A stretch of DNA of 64,000 bases from an uncultured Prevotellaceae bacterium (GCA_900319225.1 ONNV01000001.1:96663-160662); one strand, 5' to 3'; positions 1 to 45,280 are shown, counted from the stretch's first letter. Notes: generated by a model from the sequence alone, not told the origin. Translations and numbers: made by a program.

Positions 1-2608
1 GTGTGGGGGCATATCGTGCCGCTTTCATATATTATGCCCTGGTCAGAAATGTCACTCTGGAACGGTTCCGAGCCCAGGCATGCCTCCATGACGTTATATA
101 TGGAGCCGGAGTTATGCGGGCGGCTGCTCAGTATCACCAGGTTGCTTTCGGCACGTGTCAGGGCTACATAAAGCAGGTTGAGGTTATCTACGGCCTGCAG
201 TCCGGCCTCACTTTTATAATTATCCTCAAAGACGGATTTCTTTAGTGAACCGTTGAATCCTACCGGAATGAACGGCATACCGTCAAACTGGGCCTCATTG
301 GGCTTGATCCAGAGACGTTTTTCAGTCTTGCTGCCGGTGTCAATGATGGGCCAGTTGCATAAGGGTACTATCACCGTATGGAACTCCAATCCTTTGGATT
401 TGTGTATGGTAAGCAGACGGATTCCGTTGATATCGGTGGCAGGTATGGGTGTCTTGTACAGTTTTTCATCCCATTCAACGATAAATTGCGCCAGGTCACC
501 GGGGTTGCGGCTGAGCCATTGGCAGACGGTATCCTGGAATGCCATCATATACTGGTCCTGGCCCTCAATACGGTCCAACTGTAGTATGCTGTACAGCTTC
601 TCAGTCAGTTCATAAAGCGGGAGATGACGGATGGAGTCAGCCTGCTCTGTGAACGGCTGGGGCAGGGCGTTCTCCAATCCGTTGGCGTAGATATGGTCAA
701 AAGTCTCATCTGTGCCGTCAACGGCGTTCTTGTACTCCCAGGCAAGCTGCGCCAGAGATATCCGGTCAGTGCTGTCAGAGAGCCAACGCAGGGCATTTAC
801 CATAATCCTTACAGAGACGGATGAATCCAGTTGGAAAGCCTCACTGGATATCATGTTGTAGTCAGGACGGTTCTGTGCAAACCATCCCGCGATATCGGCT
901 ATCTGGTTCTTTGTGCGGCAGAGTATGGCAATATCGGTCTGCAGGACTCCGGCCTCAGTGAGTCTGTCCAGATGCTCTGCAATCCTGGGGTATATCTTAT
1001 CGGGGTACTCTTTTGTCTTGACCTCATCACTGATGGTCTGGACATGGACATAACCGGTGCCGTCATTATTGGTGCATTCCTGCTTTACGCCGTCATATGC
1101 CAGTTTCAAATCAGGGTACTCAAGACCGGTCTGCTCCCGGTAGAACTGGGATGTGAATTCCACCGCCTTGGGGAACAACGCGTTATTGAAGTCAATCACC
1201 TGCTGGCGGCTGCGGTGGTTGCTGTCCATTGATACTACCTTGGGGCTGAATCTGGCAAGTTCCCGTTCTATGCCGGTGTTGAGTATGTTCCAGTCACTGT
1301 TTCGCCAGCGGTAGATTGATTGCTTTACGTCACCCACCACCAGACAGTCCTGACCGGTGGCAAGGCATTCATTAAGCAGAATGGCCAGGTTGCGCCATTG
1401 CAGGTCCGATGTATCCTGGAACTCATCTATCATGACGTGACGGGTAAAACTGCCTGTCTTTTCATACACGAATGATGTGTCTCCGTCTTCCATCTGATGC
1501 AGAAGCTGGGGCGTGTCTGCCAGTATGAAACGGCCCTGCTCCTGGCTCTGGGTGTCAATCTCCCGGCGTATGCTCAGCAGGAGACTCAGCTCATGCAGAT
1601 ACTTTAGTGCGGAGTCAAAGGAGTTGCCGGTGTATATGTATTCGTCATACTCCTTTAAGACATCTTCAAATAACGGCATCAGTATCTCCTGTGCCAGAGG
1701 CCCCAGGAACGGCATTTTCTTTACCACGGTTTTGCCGAATATCTTATCCGGGTTGGTGGCGCAGTTCCCCAGTGTCTTGCTTTTGGGATCCATATCCACC
1801 ACCGTGCCGTCAGCAATCCTTGTCACCAGAGGCTTTGCGTATCGGTCCATCATGTCAAACGCAGAACCTACGGCACCGAGTAACTCTTGTCCCAGCTCTT
1901 TTATATGATCCAGGATGGCCGACAGCTTACTGTCACGGGCGGCTATGAGGTTCTGCTTGTAATCGGTGACGGCGTCGGGGTTATCGGTCATGATGCGGCG
2001 TAACTCCTGCCCATATTGCATGAAAATCTCGCTGAAAAGCTCACGTGAGAAACTCTTTATGGTCTTGTCAATGGACCAGCTGCGGTCATTCTCAATGTTG
2101 CTTTCCACAAATTTCATGATGTTGCGCTTATCGGGAGAGTCAGGCTCAACATCGGCCAGGAACGCATCGACGGCCTCATCAATGGCGGCATCAGTATCCA
2201 GCTCAAGAGTCAGGTTGCCGCCTATGTTCAGCTCACGGGCCAGACCGCGCAGGACTGTCTGGAAGAAACTGTCAATGGTCTCGACGCGGAAACGGCCGTA
2301 ATCCTGCAGGATGTTGTCAAGGGCCAGGATGGCATTGTGCCGTATGGTCTGCTCATCCAGACTGACAGAATTCTTTACCTCCTCAAAGTATCCCTGTGAG
2401 CTTTTAAGACCATGTCCGATACCGTACAGCTGCGACATTATTCGCTGCTTCATCTCGGCAGTGGCCTTGTTTGTAAAAGTTACTGCAAGTATGCTGCGGT
2501 AGTTCTCAGGGTTGTTCACAAGCATGACAATATACTGCACCGCCAGCCGGAAGGTTTTGCCCGATCCGGCCGATGCCTTATACACAGTCAGGTGAGAATT
2601 GTTACCCA
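1..2608 (-). CDS. UvrD/AddA-type ATP-dependent DNA helicase, N-terminal part (about 869 codons); the C-terminus lies beyond the left window edge
   Basis: Absent from the ORF track because it has no stop codon inside the window. Hand translation of the reverse strand from the ATG at 2606-2608 gives MGNNSHLTVYKASAGSGKTFRLAVQYIVMLV..AVTFTNKATAEMKQRI..RVETIDSFFQTVLRGLAREL. This contains a Walker A (GSGKT) and UvrD-family motifs. Only the first ~150 codons were translated. The + strand over 1-2600 carries only short overlapping ORFs. Confidence 0.8.
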
Positions 2609-2690
2609 TAGGAGTTTAAACTATCCAAATTTAGTGATTCCTTTTTATAAAAGAGTTATCTTCGCGGTCCAATTATAAACACGTGATAAT

Positions 2691-3509
2691 ATGGGATACA
2701 TTACTGAAGACAAACGTAAGGTTACCACACAGCGTCTCAGAGAGATGAAACAGCGTGGCGAGAAGATTGCAATGCTTACCGCCTATGACTACACCATGGC
2801 CAGGATGGTCGATGGTGCCGGTATCGACGTTATTCTGGTTGGAGACTCGGCATCGAACGTGATGGCCGGAAACCAGACTACACTGCCTATTACGCTTGAC
2901 CAGATGATATATCACGCCAAGTCTGTTGTACGCGGCGTGCAGCGCGCCCTGGTGGTTGTGGATATGCCTTTCGGCACCTATCAGATCAATGATTCCGAGG
3001 CTGTTACCAATGCCATCAAGATAATGAAGGTGTCACATGCCGATGCACTCAAACTGGAAGGCGGCGAGGAGATCCTGCCTCAGGTGCGTCATTTGATAGA
3101 AATAGGTATCCCTGTTATGGGACATCTGGGTCTGACACCCCAATCCATCAATAAATTCGGAACATATGCCGTTCGCGCCAAGGAGGAGGCCGAGGCTGAG
3201 AAACTCATTTCCGATGCCCACAAACTTGAGGAGGCAGGTTGTTTCTCAATCACACTGGAGAAAATCCCCGCCAAGCTTGCCGAGCGCGTAGCCAAGGAGG
3301 TCTCAATTCCTATTATAGGCATTGGTGCAGGAAACGGCGTTGACGGTCAGGTCCTGGTATGCGCCGATATGCTGGGCATGAACAACGATTTCAGTCCCCG
3401 GTTCCTGCGTCGTTACGCCAACCTCTACGAGACCATCACCAGCGCGGTAGGTCATTACGTGGAGGATGTCAAGAACTCTGACTTCCCCAACGAGAAGGAA
3501 CAATACTGA
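2691..3509 (+). CDS. panB: 3-methyl-2-oxobutanoate hydroxymethyltransferase (ketopantoate hydroxymethyltransferase)
   Basis: The 272-aa ORF reads ..[57 protein letters not shown].., a typical PanB signature and length. Confidence 0.93.
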
Positions 3510-3576
3510 TGACCCATTAGGGACAGTCCCCCTGTGCCATCTTGCATGGCACAGGGGGACTGTCCCTAATGGGTCA
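3510..3576. terminator. Bidirectional hairpin with a perfect 31-bp stem and 5-nt loop, shared by convergent panB and the DEAD-box helicase gene
   Basis: TGACCCATTAGGGACAGTCCCCCTGTGCCAT (3510-3540), loop CTTGC, then the exact reverse complement (3546-3576). The helicase stop codon is the last 3 nt (TCA at 3574-3576). A second in-frame TGA for panB is the first 3 nt. Confidence 0.75.
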
Positions 3577-4785
3577 TTTCTTGGGTTTGTGGAAGAACTT
3601 CCTTTTCCCTTTGTAGGGAGTTCTGGGACGTTCTGCTTTGTACTCCGGAGCCTCGCCAAGCTCGGCGGGGAGGGGGACTTTGTAGACGTCTTTGCCTAGG
3701 AAACGCTCTATCTGGCGGAACTTGGGCTGGTCGTCCAGGCTGATGAAGGTGATGGCGCAGCCTTCGGCGCCGGCGCGGGCGGTTCGGCCTATGCGGTGGA
3801 CGTAGTCTTCGGGGTCGTGGGGGACGTCAAAGTTGATGACAAGGTCTATGTCATCTATGTCTATTCCGCGTGATACGATATCGGTGGCTACGAGTATGTT
3901 GATGTGACCGTTGCGGAACTTGTGCATGATTTCATCACGCTCTGCCTGAGCCAGGTCGGAGTGCATCTCGCCTACGTTCAGACCAAGGCGGCGCAGTGAT
4001 TTGGTTATCTCCTTGACCTTGAGTTTGGACGATGCAAACGCAATTACCCTCTTGGGGGCGTTGGCGCTGAACAGACTCTGTATGATGGGCAGTTTCTGGG
4101 CCTCGTAGCATACGTAGGCGGCCTGCAGGATCTTTTCGGCCGGCTTGGAGACGGCCAGTTTGACCTCTACCGGGTTGTGCAGGATGGTGCGGGCCATGCG
4201 CTGTATCTCATCGGGCATGGTGGCGGAAAAGAGCATGTTCTGGCGCTTGGCGGGCAGCTGCTTTACAATCTGCATGATGTCATCATAGAAACCCATATCG
4301 AGCATGCGGTCGGCCTCGTCAAGGATAAAGAATGATACCTTGCTCAGGTCTATGTTGCCCAGACTGATATGGCTGATAAGACGGCCGGGAGTGGCTACCA
4401 CGATATCGGTACCCATGGCAAAGCCGCGTTTTTCCTGCTCAAAGCGGATTCCGTCATTGCCTCCGTAGACGGCGGTTCCGGATATGTTGGTGAAGTAGGA
4501 GAATCCCTCTATCTGCTGGTCTATCTGCTGTGCCAGCTCGCGGGTGGGTACCATGATGAGGCAGTTCACCGCGTCCTGGGGGTAGTCTCCACTTGACAGT
4601 TTGTCAAGTACGGGCAGCAGGTAGGCGGCGGTCTTGCCGGTTCCGGTCTGTGCTATGCCTATAAGGTCATGTCCTTCTAAAAGTATGGGTATGGCTTTCT
4701 CCTGGATGGGAGTGCACTCCTGAAAATTCATTGCGTCTATGGCGTCAAGTAACGCCGGCTGGAAATCTAGCTCGTCAAATCTCAC
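3574..4785 (-). CDS. DEAD-box ATP-dependent RNA helicase (RhlE-like)
   Basis: 403 aa with a Q-motif region, AQTGTGKT (motif I), DEAD (..FFILDEADRMLD..), SAT and HRIGRTARAG motifs. Confidence 0.92.
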   Translation of the reverse strand: MRFDELDFQPALLDAIDAMNFQECTPIQEKAIPILLEGHDLIGIAQTGTGKTAAYLLPVLDKLSSGDYPQDAVNCLIMVPTRELAQQIDQQIEGFSYFTNISGTAVYGGNDGIRFEQEKRGFAMGTDIVVATPGRLISHISLGNIDLSKVSFFILDEADRMLDMGFYDDIMQIVKQLPAKRQNMLFSATMPDEIQRMARTILHNPVEVKLAVSKPAEKILQAAYVCYEAQKLPIIQSLFSANAPKRVIAFASSKLKVKEITKSLRRLGLNVGEMHSDLAQAERDEIMHKFRNGHINILVATDIVSRGIDIDDIDLVINFDVPHDPEDYVHRIGRTARAGAEGCAITFISLDDQPKFRQIERFLGKDVYKVPLPAELGEAPEYKAERPRTPYKGKRKFFHKPKK

Positions 4786-4795
4786 GGTGAAATGG

Positions 4796-5914
4796 TTATT
4801 TTGGTGCTTTTATGTAAAGGAATATAGCAATCGGTATGTAAATGAAATTGGGAAGCCACTCGGCCATGAAAGCAGACATGGAGCCTGTTATGGCAAAGTT
4901 TGATGAGACTATCTGGAATAGTATGTATCCGAAACTCAGTCCCAGACCTATGCCCAGATAGAGTCCCATGCCGCCCTTACGTTTACGGCTGGAGAGCGAT
5001 ACGCCCATCACGGTCAGGATGAATGCGGCGAATGACATGGCGTAACGTTTATGGTACTCAATTTCAAAGTCCTGTATGTTGCCCATGCCGCGCTCTTTCT
5101 GGCGACGTATGTATTCACGCAGTTCGGCCGATGACATGGTCTCCTGCTGGCCGTTCTCAATCAAGAAATCTGCCGGCTCAAAGTGGATTATGGTATCCAT
5201 GTCATTGCCCTGGCTTATGGATTCTATGTTGCTTGAAAGGTCACGGATCAAATAGTTGCGCACTTTCCAGTGGTATTTATCGGCTGCGAGAGTGTCATAT
5301 GTGACGCTGCGGGCGGTCATGTGTGATACCAGTTTCTTGCCTTCAAACTTGTCAAGCGTAAAGCGGTAACCGGTACGGGTCTCGTGGTTGTAGCTCTCCA
5401 TGTAGGCTATGATACCTTCCTCAACTTCAAGCTGTATGTTGTAGGCGCCACTTGAGTTGTCACGGTTGTAGTGGCTCATTCCGTACTTGTTCTCAAACGT
5501 AAGTCTTTTTATGCTGGCCTTGGGTATGACCTGTGATCCCAGATAGAGGGTGAAAGCGGCGATAAGGGCTGCGGACAGCATATACGGAATCATCATCCTC
5601 TTAAAACTCATTCCCGTTGAGAACATGGCGATTATCTCAGAGTTCTCGGCCAGTTTTGAGGTGAAGAATATGATGGCTATGAATACGAACAGCGGACTGA
5701 AAAGATTGATGAAATAGGGGATAAAGTTGAGATAGTAATCAAATATGATCTCCTTGGCCGATGCTGCATTGAGCTTGTCAATCTTCTCATTGAAGTCAAA
5801 GACCACCAGGATCACGATGATGAGCGCAATGGTAAAGAAGTAGGTTCCAAGGAACTTCTTTATGATGTACCAGTCAAGGCGTTTGAGCAGTCTGTGTCTG
5901 AAAGGACTTTTCAT
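4796..5914 (-). CDS. LptF/LptG family permease (YjgP/YjgQ)
   Basis: 372 aa. The N-terminus LLKRLDWYIIKKFLGTYFFTIALII is typical of LptF/G, with multiple TM segments flanking a large periplasmic loop. Confidence 0.8.
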   Translation of the reverse strand: MKSPFRHRLLKRLDWYIIKKFLGTYFFTIALIIVILVVFDFNEKIDKLNAASAKEIIFDYYLNFIPYFINLFSPLFVFIAIIFFTSKLAENSEIIAMFSTGMSFKRMMIPYMLSAALIAAFTLYLGSQVIPKASIKRLTFENKYGMSHYNRDNSSGAYNIQLEVEEGIIAYMESYNHETRTGYRFTLDKFEGKKLVSHMTARSVTYDTLAADKYHWKVRNYLIRDLSSNIESISQGNDMDTIIHFEPADFLIENGQQETMSSAELREYIRRQKERGMGNIQDFEIEYHKRYAMSFAAFILTVMGVSLSSRKRKGGMGLYLGIGLGLSFGYILFQIVSSNFAITGSMSAFMAEWLPNFIYIPIAIFLYIKAPK

Positions 5915-5926
5915 ATCTCCAAAAGG

Positions 5927-7066
5927 TTACAGGCGTTGCATTACTCGTTTTACCATGACATCCTTCCAGGTGTGGTAATCATCGGCCAGGATATGCTTGC
6001 GGGCCTCGCCTACGAGCCACAGGTAGAATGCCAGATTATGTATGGATGCTATCATCAGTGCAAGGTACTCCTGCGCCTTGAACAGGTGATGCAGGTATGC
6101 CTTGGTGTAGAGGGCGTCAACATATGAAGCTCCATCGGGCTCGATGGGATCAAACACATCCTCCCATTTCTTGTTGCGTATGTTTATGATGCCGTCCTTG
6201 GTGAACAGCATGGCGTTACGGCCGTTGCGGGTGGGCATGACGCAGTCAAACATATCCACTCCAAGGCCGATAGCCTCAAGTATGTTGGCTGGGGTGCCTA
6301 CACCCATCAGGTAACGGGGTTTGTCCTTGGGCAGGATGTCATGCACCAGGTCAATCATCTCATACATGACATCTGTGGGCTCACCTACGGCCAGTCCGCC
6401 TATTGCATTGCCCTCGGCTCCTTTTGATGCAATATATTCGGCCGATTTGGCTCGCAGGTCCTTGTAGACGCAGCCCTGGACAATGGGGAACAGGGCCTGA
6501 TGGTATCCGTACTTGGGCTCTGTTGAATTGAAACGCTCAAAACAGCGGTCAAGCCAGCGGTGAGTACGCTCCATGGACTGCTTGGCATACTTGTAATCGG
6601 CAGTGCCGGGACAGCACTCATCGAACGCCATGATGATATCGGCACCGATGGTACGCTCTATATCCATGACGCGCTCAGGGGTGAACAGGTGGCGTGATCC
6701 GTCTATGTGTGACTGGAATTTGACACCCTCCTCAGTCATCTTCCTGAGTCCCGTTAGTGAGAATACCTGGAAACCGCCGCTGTCAGTGAGCATGGGGCGG
6801 TCAAATCCGTTGAATTTATGCAATCCACCGGCCTTTTCCAGCACATCCAGACCCGGACGCAGGTAGAGGTGGTATGTATTACCCAGTATGATCTGGGCTT
6901 TTATGTCATCCTTGAGCTCATTCACATGGACGGCCTTGACCGAGCCTACGGTACCTACAGGCATGAAAATGGGGGTCTCAATAACTCCGTGGTCTGTGGT
7001 AATGCGTCCGGCTCTGGCGTGGCTGGTGCCGTCTGTGTGCTGAAGTTCAAATGTCAGTGCGTTCAA
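5927..7066 (-). CDS. tgt: Queuine tRNA-ribosyltransferase
   Basis: 379 aa: ..ARAGRITTDHGVIETPIFMPVGTVGSVKAV..LGNTYHLYLRPG..TDSGGFQVFSL.. Confidence 0.95.
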   Translation of the reverse strand: MNALTFELQHTDGTSHARAGRITTDHGVIETPIFMPVGTVGSVKAVHVNELKDDIKAQIILGNTYHLYLRPGLDVLEKAGGLHKFNGFDRPMLTDSGGFQVFSLTGLRKMTEEGVKFQSHIDGSRHLFTPERVMDIERTIGADIIMAFDECCPGTADYKYAKQSMERTHRWLDRCFERFNSTEPKYGYHQALFPIVQGCVYKDLRAKSAEYIASKGAEGNAIGGLAVGEPTDVMYEMIDLVHDILPKDKPRYLMGVGTPANILEAIGLGVDMFDCVMPTRNGRNAMLFTKDGIINIRNKKWEDVFDPIEPDGASYVDALYTKAYLHHLFKAQEYLALMIASIHNLAFYLWLVGEARKHILADDYHTWKDVMVKRVMQRL

Positions 7067-7073
7067 AACAGAG

Positions 7074-9545
7074 TTACTTTTCAGGTTGCTGAATAGGGAC
7101 TATCTCAAGTGCGTCGGATACCTTCTCATCCAGAAGCGCAATCTTCCAAACCTCACTTATGTTGCCTACGTAGTGGAACTCCAGGCCTTTCAGATACTCT
7201 GCTGGAATCTCCTCAATGTCACGGCGGTTCTCAGAGCAGAGTATGATATCGGTAATTCCGGCACGCTTGGCTGCCAGGATTTTCTCACGGATTCCGCCCA
7301 CTGGCAGCACCTTACCGCGCAGTGTAATCTCACCGGTCATGGCCAGGTTTGCACGTACCTTACGCTGGGTAAAGGCCGATGCAATTGACGTAGCCATGGT
7401 GATACCGGCCGACGGGCCGTCCTTGGGAATGGCGCCCTCTGGTACGTGGATATGTACGTTCCATGAGTTGAATACGGCGGGGTCAAGTGAGAGCAGCTTG
7501 GCATGTGCGCGGATATACTCCATGGCCAGCATGGCAGACTCTTTCATCACGTCACCCAGATTGCCGGTGAGGGTAAGCTTACCCTCCTTTCCGCGGCTCA
7601 GGCTGGTCTCTACAAAGAGAATCTCACCGCCTACGGCTGTCCAGGCAAGTCCGGTTACCACGCCGGCATAGTCATTACCCTGATACTTGTCACGGGTGTA
7701 GGGCTTGGTACCCAGCAGTTCCTTAAGGTCTGCAGGCTTCACGGTCATCTTGCCGAAATCACCGTCATTGGCGTAACGGCAGGCGGCCTTACGGCATATC
7801 TTGCCAAGTTTCTTGTCAAGTTCACGGACCCCTGACTCACGGGTGTAGCTCTCAATGATAGCCTCGATTGCGGGCTTGGTTACGTTAAGGCTGCCTTTCT
7901 TGAGTCCGTTGGCCTCCATCTCCTTGGGCAGGAGGTGACGGCGGGCAATCTCAATCTTCTCCTCGGTGATGTAACCGCTCACCTCAATCAGCTCCATACG
8001 GTCCAGAAGCGGAGCGGGTATGGTGTTGATATTGTTGGCGGTAGCTATGAACATAACCTTTGACAGGTCATAGTCAATATCCAGATAATTATCGTGGAAT
8101 GCACTGTTCTGCTCAGGGTCAAGCACCTCAAGCAGGGCCGATGAGGGATCACCCTGGTTGGTCATCTGGCTCACTTTATCGATTTCATCGAGGATAAAGA
8201 CCGGATTGGATGAGCCGGCCTTGGCCAGACCTTTGATGATACGGCCGGGCATGGCGCCTATGTATGTCTTGCGGTGACCGCGGATCTCGGCCTCATCATG
8301 CAGACCGCCCAGTGATATGCGTACGTACTTGCGTTTGAGTGCGTTGGCGATGGAAAGTCCCAGTGATGTCTTACCTACTCCGGGAGGGCCGTAGAGGCAG
8401 AGTATGGGTGATTTGAAATCACCGCGCAGCTTCATTACCGCCAGATGCTCCAGGATACGCTCCTTGACTTTCTCCAGACCGTAATGGTCCTTGTCAAGGG
8501 CCTTGCGGGCGTTGGCCATGTCAAGGTTGTCCTTGGTGTATTCACCCCATGGCAGGCTCAGCACGGTCTGCAGGTATGAGAGCTGTACGTTATAGTCAGG
8601 TGACTGTGAGTTGGTGCGTTCCAGCTTAACCAGCTCCTTGTCAAAGATCTTGCGTACATCGGCACTCCATTTCTTCTGGTTTGCCTTGAGGCGCATCTCC
8701 TCGATATCCTGGTCCTGGACGCTGCCGCCCAGCTCATCCTGTATGTTCTTGAGCTCCTGCTGCAGGAAATACTCTTTCTGCTGCTTGTCAATGTCCTCAT
8801 GCGTGCGGCGCTGTATGCTCATCTTGAGCTCTGCCAGCTGGATCTCACGGTTCAGTATGGAGAGCAGACGCAGGGCACGGCTGGAACAGGTTCCTTCACG
8901 CAGCAGATGCACCTTCTCCTTGATGTCAAAGGGCAGGTTGGCGCATATGAAATTTATCAGGAACAGCCCGTTGGATATGTTCTTGAGCGCAAATGCGGCA
9001 TCGGGCTGGATGCTGTCCGACAGTTTCACGTACTTTATGGCAGCCTCCTTGCATGAGTCTACTATAGCCTTGAACTCCTTGCTGCGGGTAGGGGGCAGGA
9101 CCTCGGGGAATATCTCGGCACTGCCTATCAGATAGGGGTCGTCATTGACTATGCTCTTGAGCTTGATACGCTGCATACCCTGCAGTACCACGGTGGTGGT
9201 CTGGTCCGGCATATCAAATACTCGTATTATCTTGGCCAGCACTCCGGCGGAGTAGAGGTCGTTGAATCCCGGGTTCTCGGTATCAGGCTCTTTCTGACAG
9301 AATACGGCAATCTGCTTTCCTTCAGCAAATGCGTTCTGTACCAGTTTAAGTGATGATTTGCGGCCTACGGTTACGGGCATGACCACTGTGGGGAACAGCA
9401 CCATGTTGCGGAGCGGGAGCACCGGCACGATGTCATCCATGTCCGTGTCAAAGAGACCGCTCTCATTGCCGTCAAAATCGGCTATCATGGAAAAGGCCGG
9501 ATTTGACTCGTCAAAAGCGTCTTCTGGATGTTTCTTGGTAAACAT
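7074..9545 (-). CDS. lon: ATP-dependent Lon protease (LonA type)
   Basis: LON N-domain ([20 protein letters not shown]), AAA+ Walker A (GPPGVGKTS) and protease-domain [11 protein letters not shown]. The start is trimmed from the track's 9701 to the ATG at 9543-9545 (MFTKKHPED..). A minus-strand TAccTTTG box sits 21 nt upstream of that ATG, and the longer form would overlap the divergent gene. Confidence 0.9.
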
Positions 9546-11342: not shown

Positions 11343-12530
11343 ATGAACAAACTTAGCGAAAGATGCGCCCAATATACACTACCTCAGGAAGGTAAGGCGC
11401 AGGGAATTTATCCGTATCACAAGTGCTTGTCGACAATGCAGGATACGGAGGTTACCATGGAGGGACGAAAAGTTCTTATGTTCGGTTCAAACTCTTATCT
11501 GGGTCTGACCAATCATCCAAAAGTAATAGAGGCTTCAATTGAGGCAGTAAAGAAATACGGTACAGGTTGCGCCGGTTCACGTTATCTGAACGGCACGCTT
11601 GACCTGCATCAGCAGTTTGAGGCCGAGCTTGCGGAGTTTGTAGGTAAAGAGGACGCAATGATATTCTCAACCGGTTTCCAGACAAACCTGGGCACAATCT
11701 CATGTCTTATGGGGCGTGATGACTATGTTATCTGCGATGACCTGGACCATGCATCGATTGTGGACGGCCGCCGTCTCTCTTTCGCAAAGCCGCTCAAGTT
11801 CAAGCACAATGACATGGCGTCACTTGAGAAAACCCTTCAGCGCTGCGAACCCGATTCACTGAAACTGGTGGTTGTGGACGGCGTATTCAGTATGGAGGGT
11901 GACCTGGCCGATCTGCCCGGAATCATTGCTCTCAAGGACAAGTACAACTGCGCCGTCATGGTCGATGAGGCTCACGGACTTGGAGTTCTGGGTGATCACG
12001 GACGCGGCGTGTGCAACCATTTTGGCCTGACTGACCAGGTGGATATCATAATGGGTACATTCAGTAAGTCACTGGCTGCCATCGGCGGTTTTGTAGCTGC
12101 CGATGCAAGCGTGATCAACTGGATACGTCATCACTCACGCTCATACATTTTCAGTGCCAGCAACACTCCTGCAGCTACCGCTGCCGCACGTGCTGCCCTG
12201 CAGATTATGAAGAATGAGCCGGAGCGCATACAGCATCTGTGGGATCTTACCAATTACGCACTGAATAACTTCCGTCAGCTGGGATTTGAGATAGGAAAGA
12301 CTTCAACTCCTATCATCCCGCTCTACATAAGGGATTTCTACAAGACGTTCTTTATCACCAAGATGCTGTTTGAGGAGGGCGTGTTCGTGAATCCGGTTAT
12401 CCCGCCGGCATGTTCACCTGAGGATACCCTGATACGTTTCTCACTCATGGCAACCCACACCAAGGAGCAGATTGACATAGCTACCGAGAAGCTTGTCAAG
12501 TGCTTCAAGGCTTACGAGATTTTGAAATAA
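11343..12530 (+). CDS. spt: Alpha-oxoamine synthase family enzyme, most likely serine palmitoyltransferase
   Basis: 395 aa: ..VLMFGSNSYLGLTNHPKVIEA..GCAGSRYLNGTLDLH..GTFSKSLAAIGGF..SASNTPA... It is recalled as collinear with the Bacteroides sphingolipid Spt. The AONS/KBL alternative cannot be excluded without a search. Confidence 0.75.
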   Translation: MNKLSERCAQYTLPQEGKAQGIYPYHKCLSTMQDTEVTMEGRKVLMFGSNSYLGLTNHPKVIEASIEAVKKYGTGCAGSRYLNGTLDLHQQFEAELAEFVGKEDAMIFSTGFQTNLGTISCLMGRDDYVICDDLDHASIVDGRRLSFAKPLKFKHNDMASLEKTLQRCEPDSLKLVVVDGVFSMEGDLADLPGIIALKDKYNCAVMVDEAHGLGVLGDHGRGVCNHFGLTDQVDIIMGTFSKSLAAIGGFVAADASVINWIRHHSRSYIFSASNTPAATAAARAALQIMKNEPERIQHLWDLTNYALNNFRQLGFEIGKTSTPIIPLYIRDFYKTFFITKMLFEEGVFVNPVIPPACSPEDTLIRFSLMATHTKEQIDIATEKLVKCFKAYEILK

Positions 12531-12560
12531 AAAATATTTGCTTGTTCTGCTCTAAAAGCG

Positions 12561-12568
12561 TACCTTTG
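12561..12568 (+). promoter_or_regulatory. -7 promoter box (TAccTTTG) upstream of tRNA-Pro
   Basis: TACCTTTG lies 28 nt upstream of the mature tRNA 5' end. Confidence 0.55.
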
Positions 12569-12595
12569 TGCCGCTTTTCTGGACAGAGAGGCTTT

Positions 12596-12670
12596 CGGGA
12601 TGTAGTTCAGTCCGGTTAGAATGCCTGGTTTGGGACCAGGTGGTCGAAGGTTCGAATCCTTTCATCCCGA
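12596..12670 (+). tRNA. tRNA-Pro (anticodon TGG)
   Basis: Manual cloverleaf: acceptor CGGGATG/CATCCCG, anticodon stem CCTGG/CCAGG with loop TTTGGGA, T-arm GAAGG-TTCGAAT-CCTTT, discriminator A. No encoded CCA. Confidence 0.9.
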
Positions 12671-12674
12671 CTAT

Positions 12675-12710
12675 GAAACAGTGGCTCAAATAGCTGCTGT
12701 TTCTTTTTTT
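12675..12710 (+). terminator. Rho-independent terminator after tRNA-Pro
   Basis: Stem GAAACAG (12675-12681) / CTGTTTC (12697-12703), followed by a T7 run. Confidence 0.55.
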
Positions 12711-12741
12711 GCAATCTTAGCTGATTTTGGAAAGATTCCTG

Positions 12742-12759
12742 TCGGGATGAAAGGATTCG
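12742..12759. repeat. Inverted copy of the 3' end of tRNA-Pro (18/18 nt)
   Basis: TCGGGATGAAAGGATTCG is the exact reverse complement of 12653-12670 (T-loop, T-stem and acceptor 3' strand of the adjacent tRNA-Pro). Confidence 0.9.
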
Positions 12760-12780
12760 GACCGTGGGGCAAGGCCCCAC

Positions 12781-12894
12781 TTACCTCCTTTTATTTTGCT
12801 ACGCAAAAGCGCTCCATTTCATTTCGCTTGGCGGCCCTCCGGGACCGCGGTCTCGTTCGTCGCCTCACTCGCTCCGATACGTTTGTCCCTGCGT
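12781..12894. repeat. tRNA-downstream conserved element, copy 1 (homologous to 44984-45096)
   Basis: Shared blocks: TACCT.CTTTTA.TTTGCTA.CGCAAA ... GCGGCCCTCCGGGACCGCG.TCTCG ... CTCGCTC ... ATACGTT.G..CCTGCGT. Confidence 0.8.
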
Positions 12895-12977
12895 TATTCT
12901 TCAATTTTCAATTCTCCACTCTCAATTATTTTATAAAAAGGTTGGGGGGTAATAAAAAAGGTGTACCTTTGCGGTCA

Positions 12978-13065
12978 GGAAAGCAGAATGGATTGAATCA
13001 GAGTTTTCCTATTATTGAGTTGTGCGCATAACGCACATTGTGTACGGTAACGTACCCTTTTTTTT
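12978..13065 (+). ncRNA. Candidate small RNA (promoter-to-terminator unit of about 85-90 nt)
   Basis: A -7 box TACCTTTG at 12964-12971 is followed by hairpins TGTGCG/CGCACA (13021-13037) and GTACG-GTAA-CGTAC (13042-13055), then CC and T8 (13058-13065). No ORF longer than 2 codons starts at the only ATG. Confidence 0.35.
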
Positions 13066-13206
13066 GAGTTGGTTACTTTATAACCGATGGTTGTCAACAA
13101 CCGCCCGACTTGGAAAACGGTCAATAAGAAGAGTAGTAAAAGTATTTGTTTACTATATAGACTCTGATTTGAAAGTACAAAGGCATTGCTGCCTACGTAC
13201 CTGAGA

Positions 13207-13246
13207 CGTAAACAAGAGAGGTTTTATTGTTTATGTCTTTTTTTTG
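13207..13246 (+). terminator. Strong terminator/attenuator hairpin 65 nt upstream of the speA start
   Basis: ACGTAAACAA (13207-13216) pairs with TTGTTTATGT (13228-13237), including one G-U pair, with an 11-nt loop. CTTTTTTTT follows. A second hairpin CCCCTT-AAAA-AAGGGG comes immediately after. Confidence 0.5.
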
Positions 13247-13310
13247 TCCCCTTAAAAAAGGGGCGGGAAAAAGGCTGGATGGTTGAACTTTTAAAACGTT
13301 TTTGAAGTAG

Positions 13311-14768
13311 ATGGATCAGCGAAAAGCTCCCGTTTATGAAGCCCTTCAGGAGTTCCGCAGGAACAGAGTGGTACCATTCGATGTACCTGGTCACAAAAGA
13401 GGTAGGGGAAACCCCGAACTTGTAGCTCTGCTGGGTAAGCAGTGCGTTGAGTTGGATGTGAACTCAATGAAACCCCTGGACAATCTGTGTCATCCCATTT
13501 CAGTTATCAAAGAGGCTGAGGAACTGGCCGCCGAGGCATTCGGAGCCGCACATGCATTCCTTATGGTGGGCGGTACCACATCGGCCGTACAGACTATGGT
13601 GCTGACCGCATGCAAGAGCGGTGAGAAGATAATCCTGCCGCGTAACGTGCACCGCAGCGTCATCAACGCCCTGGTTGTGAATGGTGCAACTCCCATCTAT
13701 GTGAATCCCGATACGGACAACCGCCTGGGTATAGCTCTGGGCATGAAGATATCACAGGTGGAGCGTGCCATTGAGGAGAACCCCGAGGCAAAAGCCATCC
13801 TGGTGAACAACCCCACATACTACGGTATCTGCTCCAACCTTAAGAAGATTGTGGAACTGGCCCATGAGCACGGCATGATGGTGCTGGTGGATGAGGCTCA
13901 CGGAACACACTTCTACTTTGGTGAGAACATGCCTTTGACGGCCATGGCAGCCGGGGCCGATATGTCATCGGTCTCAATGCACAAATCAGGCGGAAGCCTT
14001 ACGCAGAGCTCATTCCTGCTTACAGGCCCTAACGTCAGCGCCGGTTATGTGCGTCAGGTAATCAACCTCACCCAGACCACAAGCGCATCATATCTGCTTA
14101 TCTCAAGTCTTGACATATCACGCCGTAATCTGGCCCTGCGCGGTAAGGAACTCTTTGCCGAGGTTATGCGTATTGCCGATTACGCCCGCACAGAGATCAA
14201 CAAGATAGGCGGTTACTACGCATACGGCAAGGAGCTGATAAACGGTGACAGTGTATATGACTTTGACCCCACCAAACTGACTGTCTACACACTGGATATC
14301 GGCCTGGCCGGCATTGAGGTGTATGACCTGCTGCGTGACGAGTATGACATCCAGCTGGAGTTGGGTGATATGGGTAACGTGCTGGCTTACATATCGATAG
14401 GTGACCGTATGCGTGAGGTGGAGCGTTTGGTTAGCGCGCTGGTTGACGTGAAGCGCCGATACAGCAAGGACCGCACCGGTCTGTTTGACCATGAGTATAT
14501 CAACCCTTCGGTGGTTATGACTCCGCAGGAGGCTTTCTATGCTCCCAAGGAGGAGATGATTCCCATTCGTGAGACCAACGGACGTATCTGTACGGAGTTC
14601 GTGATGTGTTATCCTCCCGGAATTCCTATCCTGGCACCGGGTGAGCGTATCACGCAGGAAATCATCGATTATATCCTTTATGCAAAGGAGAAAGGCTGCC
14701 AGCTCACCGGCCCCGAGGATGAGAAGGTTGAGCGTCTGAATGTGATTAGGGAAAGTACAACATATTGA
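13311..14768 (+). CDS. speA: PLP-dependent Orn/Lys/Arg decarboxylase (aminotransferase-fold, Bacillus SpeA-like arginine decarboxylase)
   Basis: 485 aa: ..VPFDVPGHKRG..VGGTTSAVQ..VDEAHGTHF..SMHKSGGSLTQSS (PLP lysine). It is the first gene of the polyamine operon. Confidence 0.8.
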   Translation: MDQRKAPVYEALQEFRRNRVVPFDVPGHKRGRGNPELVALLGKQCVELDVNSMKPLDNLCHPISVIKEAEELAAEAFGAAHAFLMVGGTTSAVQTMVLTACKSGEKIILPRNVHRSVINALVVNGATPIYVNPDTDNRLGIALGMKISQVERAIEENPEAKAILVNNPTYYGICSNLKKIVELAHEHGMMVLVDEAHGTHFYFGENMPLTAMAAGADMSSVSMHKSGGSLTQSSFLLTGPNVSAGYVRQVINLTQTTSASYLLISSLDISRRNLALRGKELFAEVMRIADYARTEINKIGGYYAYGKELINGDSVYDFDPTKLTVYTLDIGLAGIEVYDLLRDEYDIQLELGDMGNVLAYISIGDRMREVERLVSALVDVKRRYSKDRTGLFDHEYINPSVVMTPQEAFYAPKEEMIPIRETNGRICTEFVMCYPPGIPILAPGERITQEIIDYILYAKEKGCQLTGPEDEKVERLNVIRESTTY

Positions 14769-30069: not shown

Positions 30070-30954
30070 CAATTCATTGAAAGTGTGGGGTTTGATGCCC
30101 CAGGCGGGGGCTATCAGGAGGGATTTGGGAGTCTCGGATACAAAGCGGTCATAGAAGAGGTCCCGGCGGGCTCTCTTAATGAAGGCCGATACTACTGCGG
30201 CGTATTCTTGCGGAGTTTCAAACAGTCTTATGCTTGTGTGGTCCTGCTCATACATTTGTGCCAGCGCAGTGCCTTTTACCACCTGTAGCTGATGCAGTTT
30301 GAGCGTTTTGATGGGCAGGGCCGATACGCGCTCAGCGTGAGCCATCCAGTCCTGCTCAGTCTCGCCGGGCAGGCCTAAGATCAGATGTGCTCCGGTATCT
30401 ATTCCGCGCTCGTAAAGGTCATTAATACAGTCTGATGCACACTGGAATGTGTGGTGTCGGTTGATGAGTTGCAGAGTGCGGTCCAGAGTGGTTTCAATGC
30501 CAATCTCAACCAGCAGATGCGGGTGACCGGCTGGCGCCTTGCGTCCAAACCTCTGCTCAAACCAATCTGCCAGGTCCGGTTTGATGCAGTCGGGACGTGT
30601 GGCAATGACCAACCCCTTTACTCCTGGAAACCTTAGTGCCTCCTCATAGAGCTCAATCAACCGTCCGGTAGGTCCGTAAGTATTGGTATATGATTGGAAA
30701 TATGCCAGATACCCGTAGCATTCACCCTTGCGGCTGTTGAACTTAACGCCTTTCTCCAATTGAGCGGTAATGCCGCCGGACAAATCATTTGCAGCGTACG
30801 ATGGATTGAATGACAGGTTGTTGCAGTATATGCATCCGTCGCGGCCCAATGTGCCGTCACGGTTGGGGCATCCCAGTCCCGCATTTACCGCAATCTTGAT
30901 TACCCGTCCGGGAAACACCTCGCTCAGGTAATCATTCATGGTCCTGTATTCCAT
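30058..30954 (-). CDS. Radical SAM protein, TIGR01212 (YhcC) family
   Basis: 298 aa: ..AGLGCPNRDGTLGRDGCIYCNN.. cysteine cluster plus the family-typical length. Confidence 0.8.
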   Translation of the reverse strand: MEYRTMNDYLSEVFPGRVIKIAVNAGLGCPNRDGTLGRDGCIYCNNLSFNPSYAANDLSGGITAQLEKGVKFNSRKGECYGYLAYFQSYTNTYGPTGRLIELYEEALRFPGVKGLVIATRPDCIKPDLADWFEQRFGRKAPAGHPHLLVEIGIETTLDRTLQLINRHHTFQCASDCINDLYERGIDTGAHLILGLPGETEQDWMAHAERVSALPIKTLKLHQLQVVKGTALAQMYEQDHTSIRLFETPQEYAAVVSAFIKRARRDLFYDRFVSETPKSLLIAPAWGIKPHTFNELLKK

Positions 30955-44847: not shown

Positions 44848-44924
44848 GTGCCCGTAGTTCAGTTGGTTAGAGCGTCAGATTGTGGTTCTGAATGTCGTGG
44901 GTTCGAGTCCCACCGGGCACCCCA
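44848..44924 (+). tRNA. tRNA-His (anticodon GTG), with G-1 and an encoded CCA
   Basis: Acceptor GTGCCCG/CGGGCAC with an extra 5' G opposite the discriminator C. Anticodon stem TCAGA/TCTGA with loop TTGTGGT. T-arm GTGGG-TTCGAGT-CCCAC. CCA at 44922-44924. Confidence 0.9.
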
Positions 44925-44961
44925 AAAGAAAAAAGAGGTCATTCGGCCTCTTTTTTCTTTT
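44924..44961. terminator. 15-bp-stem hairpin terminator after tRNA-His
   Basis: AAAAGAAAAAAGAGG - TCATTCGG - CCTCTTTTTTCTTTT. Confidence 0.65.
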
Positions 44962-44980
44962 GGGGTGTCCGGTGGGACTC
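44962..44980. repeat. Inverted copy of the 3' end of tRNA-His (18/19 nt)
   Basis: GGGGTGTCCGGTGGGACTC compared with the reverse complement of 44905-44923 (GGGGTGCCCGGTGGGACTC). Together with the terminator this makes 44905-44980 a near-perfect palindrome with 34-bp arms. Confidence 0.9.
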
Positions 44981-44983
44981 CAG

Positions 44984-45096
44984 TACCTTCTTTTAGTTTG
45001 CTAACGCAAACCCGTTCACTTCGTTCACTCAGCGGCCCTCCGGGACCGCGTTCTCGCTCCAAGCATTCGCTCGCCCCAATACGTTAGCACCTGCGT
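44984..45096. repeat. tRNA-downstream conserved element, copy 2 (homologous to 12781-12894)
   Basis: The same ordered blocks as copy 1, including the identical 19-mer GCGGCCCTCCGGGACCGCG and the terminal CCTGCGT. Confidence 0.8.
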
Positions 45097-45280
45097 GAAT
45101 ATCCAATACCTACGGCATTGGATTGAATGGGAGAACATGCGGATTACCCAGCCATTAAAATGGCTGGCTACCCATATCTTGTGCCTAGCGGCACAACAAC
45201 ATGCCGTAGGCATGGGATTAAGGTAGCCAGCCAATTCATTGGCTGGATCTTTCCAATTATAAATACATTTCCCTTTTGGT

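Follow-up and report, generated by a model that had tools for sequence, protein, structure and literature searches.

The window analysed here, a stretch of 64,000 nucleotides from an uncultured Prevotellaceae bacterium (GCA_900319225.1, ONNV01000001.1:96663-160662), carries on its plus strand a tRNA-Pro(tgg) gene at 12596-12671 (ARAGORN; Rfam RF00005, 68.9 bits) and a tRNA-His(gtg) gene at 44848-44924 (ARAGORN and Rfam), and behind each of them lies one copy of a non-coding element of about 115 nt. The original prediction, made from this sequence alone, placed the two copies at 12781-12894 and 44984-45096, and a profile that we built from relatives recovered both of them (12783/4-12894 and 44984/5-45099, E about 1e-21). 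Global alignment of the two segments left 89 of 116 columns identical (77%) and scored 57, compared to -2.7 +/- 4.4 and a maximum of 11.5 for 500 shuffles. The 19-mer common to both copies, GCGGCCCTCCGGGACCGCG, matches the window only at 12831 and 45032, even with three mismatches allowed (chance expectation 0.01). An inverted fragment of the tRNA 3' end precedes each copy, as had been described, with 12741-12763 pairing to 12649-12671 and 44947-44980 pairing to 44905-44938. Likewise, no open reading frame (ORF) is conserved between the copies; a 24-codon minus-strand ORF considered as a candidate conserved small ORF is limited to copies of one arm type (D1, see below) and was rejected. Genes near the two copies encode an aminotransferase, a decarboxylase, a PdaC/DUF3298 protein and an ion channel. 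We tentatively interpret the element as a module that acts in cis on transcription reading through the terminators ahead of it.

On the plus strand, the element is approached through a recurring order of features: the RNA gene, then an A-run, GC hairpin and T-run that together form a bidirectional terminator of locus-specific sequence, then an inverted copy of 15-46 nt of the gene and, often, a second GC hairpin. At the tRNA-Pro locus, the intrinsic terminator is a 12-bp stem with a T-run (12675-12710, + strand, by terminator scan and direct reading), and the second hairpin, GTGGGGC-AAG-GCCCCAC, which we call module H, was read from the sequence at 12764-12780 (+ strand), just before the T-run of the element. 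Module H is specific to its locus and optional in the family, with counterparts of other sequence in L097, L128, L190, L023, L042 and L083 (numbers preceded by L denote relative loci retrieved from metagenome-assembled genome (MAG) or metagenome contigs).

The element itself consists of (A/T)CCT with a T-rich run ending in A, hairpin 1, arm B, hairpin 3, arm D and a right end of the form AATACG...ACCTGCGT. In copy 1, all on the plus strand, these parts are the left end at 12783-12793 (ACCT plus the T-rich run, ACCTCCTTTTA, delimited by family comparison), hairpin 1 at 12794-12808 (TTTTGC-TAC-GCAAAA), the pyrimidine-rich arm B at 12809-12830 (GCGCTCCATTTCATTTCGCTTG), hairpin 3 at 12831-12849, which is the invariant 19-mer and has a TCC loop and one bulged A, arm D at 12850-12875, which is C-rich and G-poor, belongs to allele D2 and contains the heptamers CTCGTTC, CTCACTC and CTCGCTC, and the right end at 12876-12894 (GATACG...CCCTGCGT), on the side that is ragged in the family. 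Copy 2, also on the plus strand, has its left end (ACCTTCTTTTA) and hairpin 1 (GTTTGC-TAAC-GCAAAC) at 44985-45011, arm B at 45012-45031, where the alignment shows a direct repeat, GTTCAC-TTC-GTTCAC, and no hairpin, hairpin 3 (the 19-mer) at 45032-45050, and arm D (allele D1, TTCTCGCTCCAAGCATTCGCTCGCCCC) with the right end AATACG...ACCTGCGT at 45051-45096. Hairpin 1 lies between TTTA and GCGC, and hairpin 3, which begins and ends in G, between CTTG and GTCT. Across the family, arm B varies between a good hairpin and a C/T-rich direct repeat (59% of its alignment cells are paired) and is missing from four copies (L112, L099, L109 and L091b). Arm D, made up of these heptamers throughout the family, occurs in at least four alleles.

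A scan for the 19-mer in one genome per species returned at least 115 loci, about half of which are chance matches in high-GC genomes. At least about 50 of the loci lie in Bacteroidales, Prevotellaceae or 'Bacteroidaceae' MAGs and have homologous flanks too; the carrier MAGs are of rumen or hindgut origin and come from cattle, sheep, yak, buffalo, deer and horse. An iterated nhmmer profile run on the retrieved loci found at least 68 copies and a covariance model 72 matches, so that the pair in the window is far from alone. Several MAGs hold at least 3-4 copies with the exact 19-mer among the matches listed. In metagenomes, k-mer depth of the element is about 10-16 times that of its flanks, summed over species. 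The window derives from an organism of the rumen, and the public runs best matching it are bovine and sheep gut metagenomes. A second subfamily (type 2) runs from the T-run through GTTTGGGGCG..CGCCCCAAAC and CCGGCCTTCCAGGCCGG to a 19-bp GTAAAACG..CGTTTTAC hairpin. Its hairpin 1 is longer and GC-rich, its hairpin 3 is CCGGCCTTCCAGGCCGG, and its members, which are often convergent with a type-1 copy, occupy the 3' flanks of protein genes such as an acetate-kinase-like gene in L082 (copies at L027 7538-7628, L082 3471-3571, L108 4534-4622, L054 3037-3176 and L037 4308-4447).

We then counted positions for 56 copies, comprising the genome-scan loci and the window, and found 39 of them 45-192 nt (median 66) behind a tRNA or tmRNA gene on the same strand. 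The genes concerned are tmRNA and tRNAs for Ser, Val, Pro, Gln, Arg, Met, Lys, Cys, Tyr and His. Two further copies follow a 5S rRNA gene that closes an rRNA operon, four lie at contig ends that still show part of a tRNA, and 11 are in other positions. About 80% of copies thus stand behind a co-oriented tRNA, tmRNA or 5S rRNA gene, bearing out the tRNA association first noticed in two copies. Among the 12 copies that lack a stable-RNA gene (the 'other' copies together with type-2 matches), nine stand 55-155 nt downstream of an ORF of 100 aa or more that has the same orientation; one example is the copy behind a Fic-domain gene in L012. The place of the element is thus 3' of a gene with the same orientation, just past one or more terminator hairpins and a T-run. 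In L018, L054, L037 and L108, two copies of opposite orientation lie within about 1 kb of each other, each behind its own upstream gene, indicating that polarity follows upstream transcription and not the direction of replication. A more elaborate arrangement occurs at the tmRNA locus of L091 (4439-5160), where a full plus-strand tmRNA gene and an inverted element copy are followed by a 46-nt minus-strand fragment of the tmRNA 3' end that has its own terminator, and then by a plus-strand element copy whose hairpin 3 is a variant (TGGCCCTGTGGGCCA); this layout suggests an inverted duplication or a nested insertion.

Both stems of the element are maintained by compensatory change. In hairpin 1, 100% of alignment cells are paired and five of the six pairs are changed on both sides among 44 distinct sequences (for example UA 20, GC 15 and AU 9 at one pair, and UA 28 and CG 16 at another). 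Hairpin 3, which had been proposed as an imperfect hairpin within the 19-mer, is paired in 98% of cells and has the compensatory variants GCGACCC/GGGATCGC, GTGGCCC/GGGACCAC, GCGTCC/GGACGC, TGGCCC/GGGCCA and CCGGCCT/AGGCCGG. The covariation score was 0.231, compared to 0.081 for shuffled alignments, none of 500 of which reached the observed value, and 0.025-0.07 for slid controls. The stems are nearly free of G-U pairs, and the strand on which they act cannot be read from them because wobble pairs are nearly absent. Base composition is itself polar: the plus-strand C/G ratio is 1.58 for the whole element and 1.89 for arm D (46 copies), compared to 0.94 for the window. The sense strand is thus C-rich and G-poor; a Rho-utilization (rut) site would be a stretch of such RNA, about 70-100 nt long and largely unstructured, and here two stable hairpins interrupt the stretch.

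Copies in one MAG have a mean identity of 74.6% and copies in different MAGs 74.4%, giving no sign of recent spread, since copies within a MAG are not more alike than copies between MAGs. Between different MAGs, mean identity is 82.6% for copies behind the same isoacceptor and 75.6% for copies behind different tRNAs. At same-tRNA loci, the element is 76% identical on average and the spacer between tRNA and element 61%, against a background of 46% for unrelated spacers. As the copies most alike are those behind the same tRNA in different genomes, the family is, by these comparisons, old, mostly vertically inherited and slower-evolving than its non-coding surroundings.

Occupancy nonetheless differs between orthologous sites. 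We scanned metagenomes for the 3' 30-mer of tRNA-Pro and obtained 84 loci, among which the human-gut Bacteroides-type tRNA-Pro loci lack both the inverted arm and the element. About 11 of the roughly 27 Prevotella-type loci carry the element, one (L143) carries a mini variant, and the rest lack it. The tRNA-Pro locus of the window type is filled in L128, L187, L030, L097 and L056 and empty in L179 and L185, whose downstream sequence, with the decarboxylase promoter and leader, corresponds to that of the window. A second context borders on a convergent gene at its stop codon; L141, L144, L151, L173 and L176 have the element there, and L116, L118, L137 and L168 do not. Loci orthologous to copy 2 were found through the ion-channel gene, and their synteny is mostly lost; in the one syntenic locus, L202 (2880-3606; GH9, Na/Ala symporter, ion channel and PdaC genes), tRNA-His is oriented opposite to the window, with only an inverted arm of about 9 nt behind its terminator and no element.

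We tentatively favor the view that the element is a cis-acting post-terminator module that acts on read-through transcription and resembles repetitive extragenic palindromic (REP) sequences and the bacterial interspersed mosaic elements (BIMEs) that they form. Only polymerases that escape the intrinsic terminator or terminators of strongly transcribed, untranslated genes would read the element, and their read-through RNA would expose the C-rich, G-poor, single-stranded arms B and D around the conserved hairpin 3. Such an arm-hairpin-arm RNA could provide a Rho-loading or pausing site, i.e., a backup terminator or insulator. It may also form a structured 3' block against exonucleases, and the net effect would be to shield the downstream sequence. 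In E. coli, REPs in 3' untranslated regions are reported to serve as terminators that depend in part on Rho and as mRNA stabilisers (bioRxiv 10.64898/2026.03.23.713779). Placement, polarity, covariation, composition and conservation are established by the data above; a role of Rho and an influence on genes downstream are what we infer.

Several observations weigh against a module of this kind. Because one or two canonical intrinsic terminators precede the element, little RNA should reach it. Rho-loading sites normally lack sequence conservation, yet the 19-mer is identical across many species, and this identity, with its fixed loop and bulge, points to a specific binding partner. Hairpins of single-stranded DNA explain the covariation as well as RNA hairpins do, and the complete element has an unexceptional folding energy on either strand (z of -0.6 to -1.5 compared to shuffles). 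In contigs from RNA runs (unstranded Logan contigs that possibly include DNA), the element has a depth of about 3-7, and 65 in one run, compared to 10-8000 for tRNAs. Finally, its presence and absence at orthologous tRNA-Pro loci show it to be dispensable.

That variable occupancy, together with the state of the two ends, gives some weight to a different explanation, namely that the element is a non-autonomous mobile element aimed at a terminator hairpin and its T-run, moved in trans and without a cellular function of its own. We regard this as the main rival, though somewhat less probable. Of the 68 profile matches, 67 have an intact left end and 30 a ragged right end: 38 are full length, 12 end at profile positions 100-109 and 18 at positions 45-89. 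Shortened copies often continue into other hairpins, and the ACCTGCGT motif stands in tandem at some right ends (L027, L093 and L077). The family is a multi-copy mosaic with alternative modules and with tandem or convergent pairs (L037, L054, L018 and L091), its stems are strictly Watson-Crick, as DNA hairpins would show, and a polar target made of hairpin and T-run would account for the fixed orientation. Candidate movers are an HUH transposase of the REP-associated tyrosine transposase (RAYT) group or a transposase of IS200/IS605 type, acting on single-stranded DNA and recognising hairpins 1 and 3, or alternatively a copying mechanism anchored at the left end.

However, the element lacks terminal inverted repeats, as its ends, ACCT with the T-run and ...ACCTGCGT, are not inverted to each other, and target-site duplications are inconsistent, amounting at most to a common (A)CCT when filled and empty sites are compared. 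No transposase, reverse transcriptase or integrase gene adjoins any copy examined. Beside atypical copies, in windows of up to 15 kb, we saw only lipoprotein-like and housekeeping ORFs as possible partner genes, and no transposase-like ORF. Neither phage and plasmid collections (blastn) nor viral contigs (19-mer scan) gave a match. In addition, there is no sign of recent bursts, copies cluster by tRNA locus, the left-end T-run keeps a fixed length and carries point substitutions, unlike a variable tail, and the element is better conserved than the neighboring spacer. We compared the left junction by inspection with a CTnDOT-type target, GTANNTTTGC, and found no fit. The suggestion that the element is the end of a tRNA-targeting mobile element therefore does not hold for a known insertion sequence (IS) or integrative terminus, given the lack of terminal inverted repeats, of a clear target-site duplication and of an integrase or transposase neighbor; it survives in a weaker form, as a small non-autonomous repeat that some orthologous loci carry and others lack. 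A mobile origin and a post-terminator role are not exclusive, because REPs and BIMEs are both.

A more specific form of mobility, in which a one-ended element resembling a short interspersed nuclear element copies itself from an anchor of T-run plus hairpin 1 into the T-runs of terminators that follow the most strongly transcribed genes, seems to us quite improbable. The reverse transcriptase or rolling-circle/HUH enzyme would have to be supplied in trans. Copying of this kind would explain why the left end is intact and the right end ragged, why polarity is fixed and why stable-RNA genes are preferred. Target-primed reverse transcription with a poly(A) tail was considered and rejected, as the T-run is constant in length and carries substitutions and the empty site examined had no matching T-rich target.

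The covarying hairpins and the single-stranded C/U-rich stretch would also suit a small regulatory RNA, encoded on either strand or derived from the tRNA trailer, with arm D as the seed and hairpins 1 and 3 as the scaffold. Element words occur in many rumen metatranscriptome assemblies, and in some shortened variants (L001, L018 and L051) hairpin 3 is followed by a plus-strand hairpin and T-run. We consider a small RNA gene unlikely, however. The Bacteroidetes promoter form TTTG-N17-23-TAnnTTTG, which is present before both tRNA genes of the window, was found in none of 65 distinct copies, neither upstream on the plus strand nor on the right side on the minus strand (background rate 0.012 per 150 nt). 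The right end is ragged, and only about one-fourth of full copies have a T-run after the right-end hairpin. The element also lies behind strong terminators, its folding z-scores are ordinary and its depth in RNA runs is low next to that of tRNAs. Rfam 15 returned only tRNAs at the gathering threshold and nothing credible at E up to 10 within 12500-13400, leaving the element without an Rfam family; those covered include rtT, group II introns and tmRNA-like and OMEGA-type RNAs. What stands of the earlier proposal of a tRNA-associated non-coding RNA gene is thus a conserved, tRNA-associated and non-coding sequence; an independent gene does not, since neither a promoter nor a conserved terminator is present and both folding energy and RNA depth speak against it.

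The inverted tRNA fragment ahead of each copy proved to be a feature separate from the element. At the tRNA-Pro locus, the fragment (12741-12763, + strand) is 23 nt long, lies outside the repeat family and is 96% complementary to 12649-12671, 69 nt away; the segment 12645-12794 folds at -76.5 kcal/mol (z = -10.6). At the tRNA-His locus, the 3' part of the tRNA, the A-run/GC-stem/T-run terminator and the inverted fragment form a 34-bp palindrome at 44905-44980 (+ strand) that is 97% complementary, has an 8-nt loop and folds at -75.8 kcal/mol (z = -14.9). Terminator and inverted arm are both retained at all eight plain empty tRNA-Pro sites (L116, L118, L123, L136, L137, L168, L179 and L185), and an arm without an element also occurs behind tRNA-Met (L002) and tRNA-Asn (L012). 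Protein-gene terminators of these genomes are long palindromes as well (L012 and L095). Since the arm is present at element-free sites and the protein-gene terminators are similarly palindromic, the arm is an outward palindromic extension of the terminator, and together with the T-rich tract that follows it probably forms a nested second terminator. More generally, the tRNA, tmRNA and 5S terminators of this clade reach into 15-46 nt of the gene's own 3' end. Template switching may have given rise to these palindromes, which may function as nested second terminators or as targets of RNase III.

A variable complementary segment of 15-46 nt, always matching the local gene and lying directly 5' of a conserved structured module, could be taken for an antisense-tRNA guide joined to a protein-binding scaffold and aimed at the adjacent tRNA or its gene. 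We give this very little credence: the segment occurs without the element at the eight of eight empty Prevotella-type tRNA-Pro sites and at the tRNA-Met of L002 and the tRNA-Asn of L012, a hairpin and T-run usually separate 'guide' from 'scaffold', and neither a promoter nor an associated protein gene is present. It is just as improbable that the element is what remains of the end of a prophage or integrative element targeting tRNA or tmRNA genes, with its attachment (att) site and arm sequences. Such genes are classic integration targets, and the duplicated segment often begins in the T-loop or the anticodon/variable region and reaches the 3' end of the tRNA, a length typical of att identity blocks in the known sublocation classes. 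However, the segment here is inverted and not direct, and it is present at element-free sites. The element also follows 5S rRNA and protein-gene terminators, near-identical elements stand behind more than 10 different RNA genes, and at about 115 nt it has no integrase nearby, metabolic and transport genes as neighbors, and no phage or plasmid match. The att-relic explanation is therefore largely refuted. In L012, about 130 nt downstream of the tRNA-Asn gene (4069-4143, - strand), there is a direct copy of the tRNA 3' end (TCAAGTCCTGGAAGGAGCGC), which resembles an att-type remnant left by an element that integrated there or was excised.

Downstream of both copies, the original prediction had described a further shared block, TGGATTGAAT, and this link proved weak. 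The 10-mer occurs at three sites in the window (12989, 30802 and 45119; 0.23 expected). At 12989 it lies inside the conserved leader of the decarboxylase gene, and at 45119 inside a different palindromic repeat. Because the third site, at 30802, is in unrelated and apparently coding sequence, the block is probably not part of the element. The leader in question, of about 340 nt (12966-13310), begins after a -7 box, TACCTTTG, and precedes an Orn/Lys/Arg decarboxylase gene (13311-14768). L179, L185, L162, L128, L030, L097 and L056 all have this leader in highly conserved form. It contains a terminator-like hairpin with a T-run at 13042-13065 and matches nothing in Rfam; an attenuator or riboswitch is a candidate role.

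The sequences immediately to the right of the copies are repetitive in their own right. Directly behind copy 1, at 12895-12927, and also in L081, L082, L111 and L128, there are tandem heptamers (TCAATTT, TCAATTC, TCCACTC and TCAATTA); the empty orthologous site of L179 has a single CAATTAT, and the heptamer stretch is repeated in metagenomes at a k-mer depth 5-30 times that of its flanks. Right after copy 2, at 45101-45250, and also in L099, lies another palindromic family with CCAGCCATTAAAATGGCTGG hairpins, whose CCTACGGCAT and ATGCCGTAGG arms form a 40-nt, 78% inverted repeat. Two more repeat families occupy the slot downstream of tRNA-Pro (L030, L056, L097, L132 and L170; L001, L024, L098, L134 and L162). 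One is palindromic, measures about 200 nt and has CGCCAAAGTGTCCCAC ... GTGGGACACTTTGGCG as its bounds, and the other is made of CAATTGGGGACAGACCCC palindromes. This slot is a hot spot for small repeats.

If the element is indeed a post-terminator module, then rumen Prevotella-type bacteria, which rank with the most abundant organisms of the livestock gut, carry a dedicated and conserved module behind their tRNA, tmRNA and rRNA genes. It would provide a defined case of insulating a genome from read-through of its strongest promoters, and REP/BIME-like biology would extend to the Bacteroidota. The element also has a practical consequence: it breaks metagenome assemblies at tRNA loci because contigs end inside it, and contigs end at the repeat boundaries in DNA runs as well as in RNA runs, so that it could serve as a clade marker or typing target. 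The terminator palindromes that reach into tRNA 3' ends matter in their own right as well.

Among known systems, we compared the element with REPs and BIMEs, a group that includes the enterobacterial and pseudomonad repeats and REPINs. Like them, it is extragenic and non-coding and contains imperfect GC-rich palindromes with a conserved bulge. Hairpin 3, a 19-mer, corresponds to the short imperfect palindrome (20-40 nt) of REPs, and all copies are extragenic. The element is likewise a mosaic of hairpins and linker motifs (here module H, the T-run, hairpin 1, arm B, hairpin 3, the arm D alleles and alternative 3' modules), lies in the 3' flanks of transcription units, and combines long vertical persistence with differences in occupancy. 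It may differ in copy number, which looks like tens per genome compared to hundreds for REPs, and it does differ in the absence of a GTAG or CGTC tag at the hairpin foot and in an orientation fixed to the upstream gene where REP units alternate. It also strongly prefers stable-RNA genes, has no known RAYT partner and belongs to a different host phylum.

Closer in host, our literature search for tRNA-downstream repeats in Prevotella found only PINSR, of oral Prevotella, and an unrelated Methanopyrus motif. PINSR, which we compared by its description only, is also a lineage-specific intergenic repeat without terminal inverted repeats or coding capacity whose position is largely conserved between strains; it has about 180 copies per genome and no reported link to tRNAs, and it belongs to the oral clade. 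A non-coding repeat downstream of a tRNA gene that holds a tRNA 3' fragment is also known from the E. coli tyrT trailer, as rtT (Rfam RF00391). There, direct copies of the tRNA-Tyr end lie in a single operon and are co-transcribed and processed, whereas here the tRNA fragment is inverted and lies outside the repeat, the family stands behind a variety of RNA genes, and the Rfam scan gave no rtT match. Miniature inverted-repeat transposable elements and palindrome-associated elements derived from IS200/IS605 are similarly small, non-coding, multi-copy and variably present, with subterminal hairpins; the element described here has no terminal inverted repeats, clear target-site duplication or cognate IS, and its left end alone is constant.

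Two further systems share the niche or the layout. Class C group II introns insert after intrinsic terminators, so that niche and polarity are the same, directly behind a terminator hairpin and T-run; our element is 115 nt long, with no intron domains, reverse transcriptase ORF or Rfam match. The Rho-dependent terminator tR1 of phage lambda has a rutA-boxB-rutB layout, and in the element, too, a small conserved hairpin that follows a transcription unit stands between two C-rich, G-poor arms. The analogy concerns architecture alone, with no sequence relation, and the Rho dependence of the element is our proposal. The family has no equivalent in Rfam, the sequence collections or the literature searched and is previously undescribed; what sets it apart from other extragenic palindromic mosaic repeats is its fixed polarity and its specificity for stable-RNA genes.

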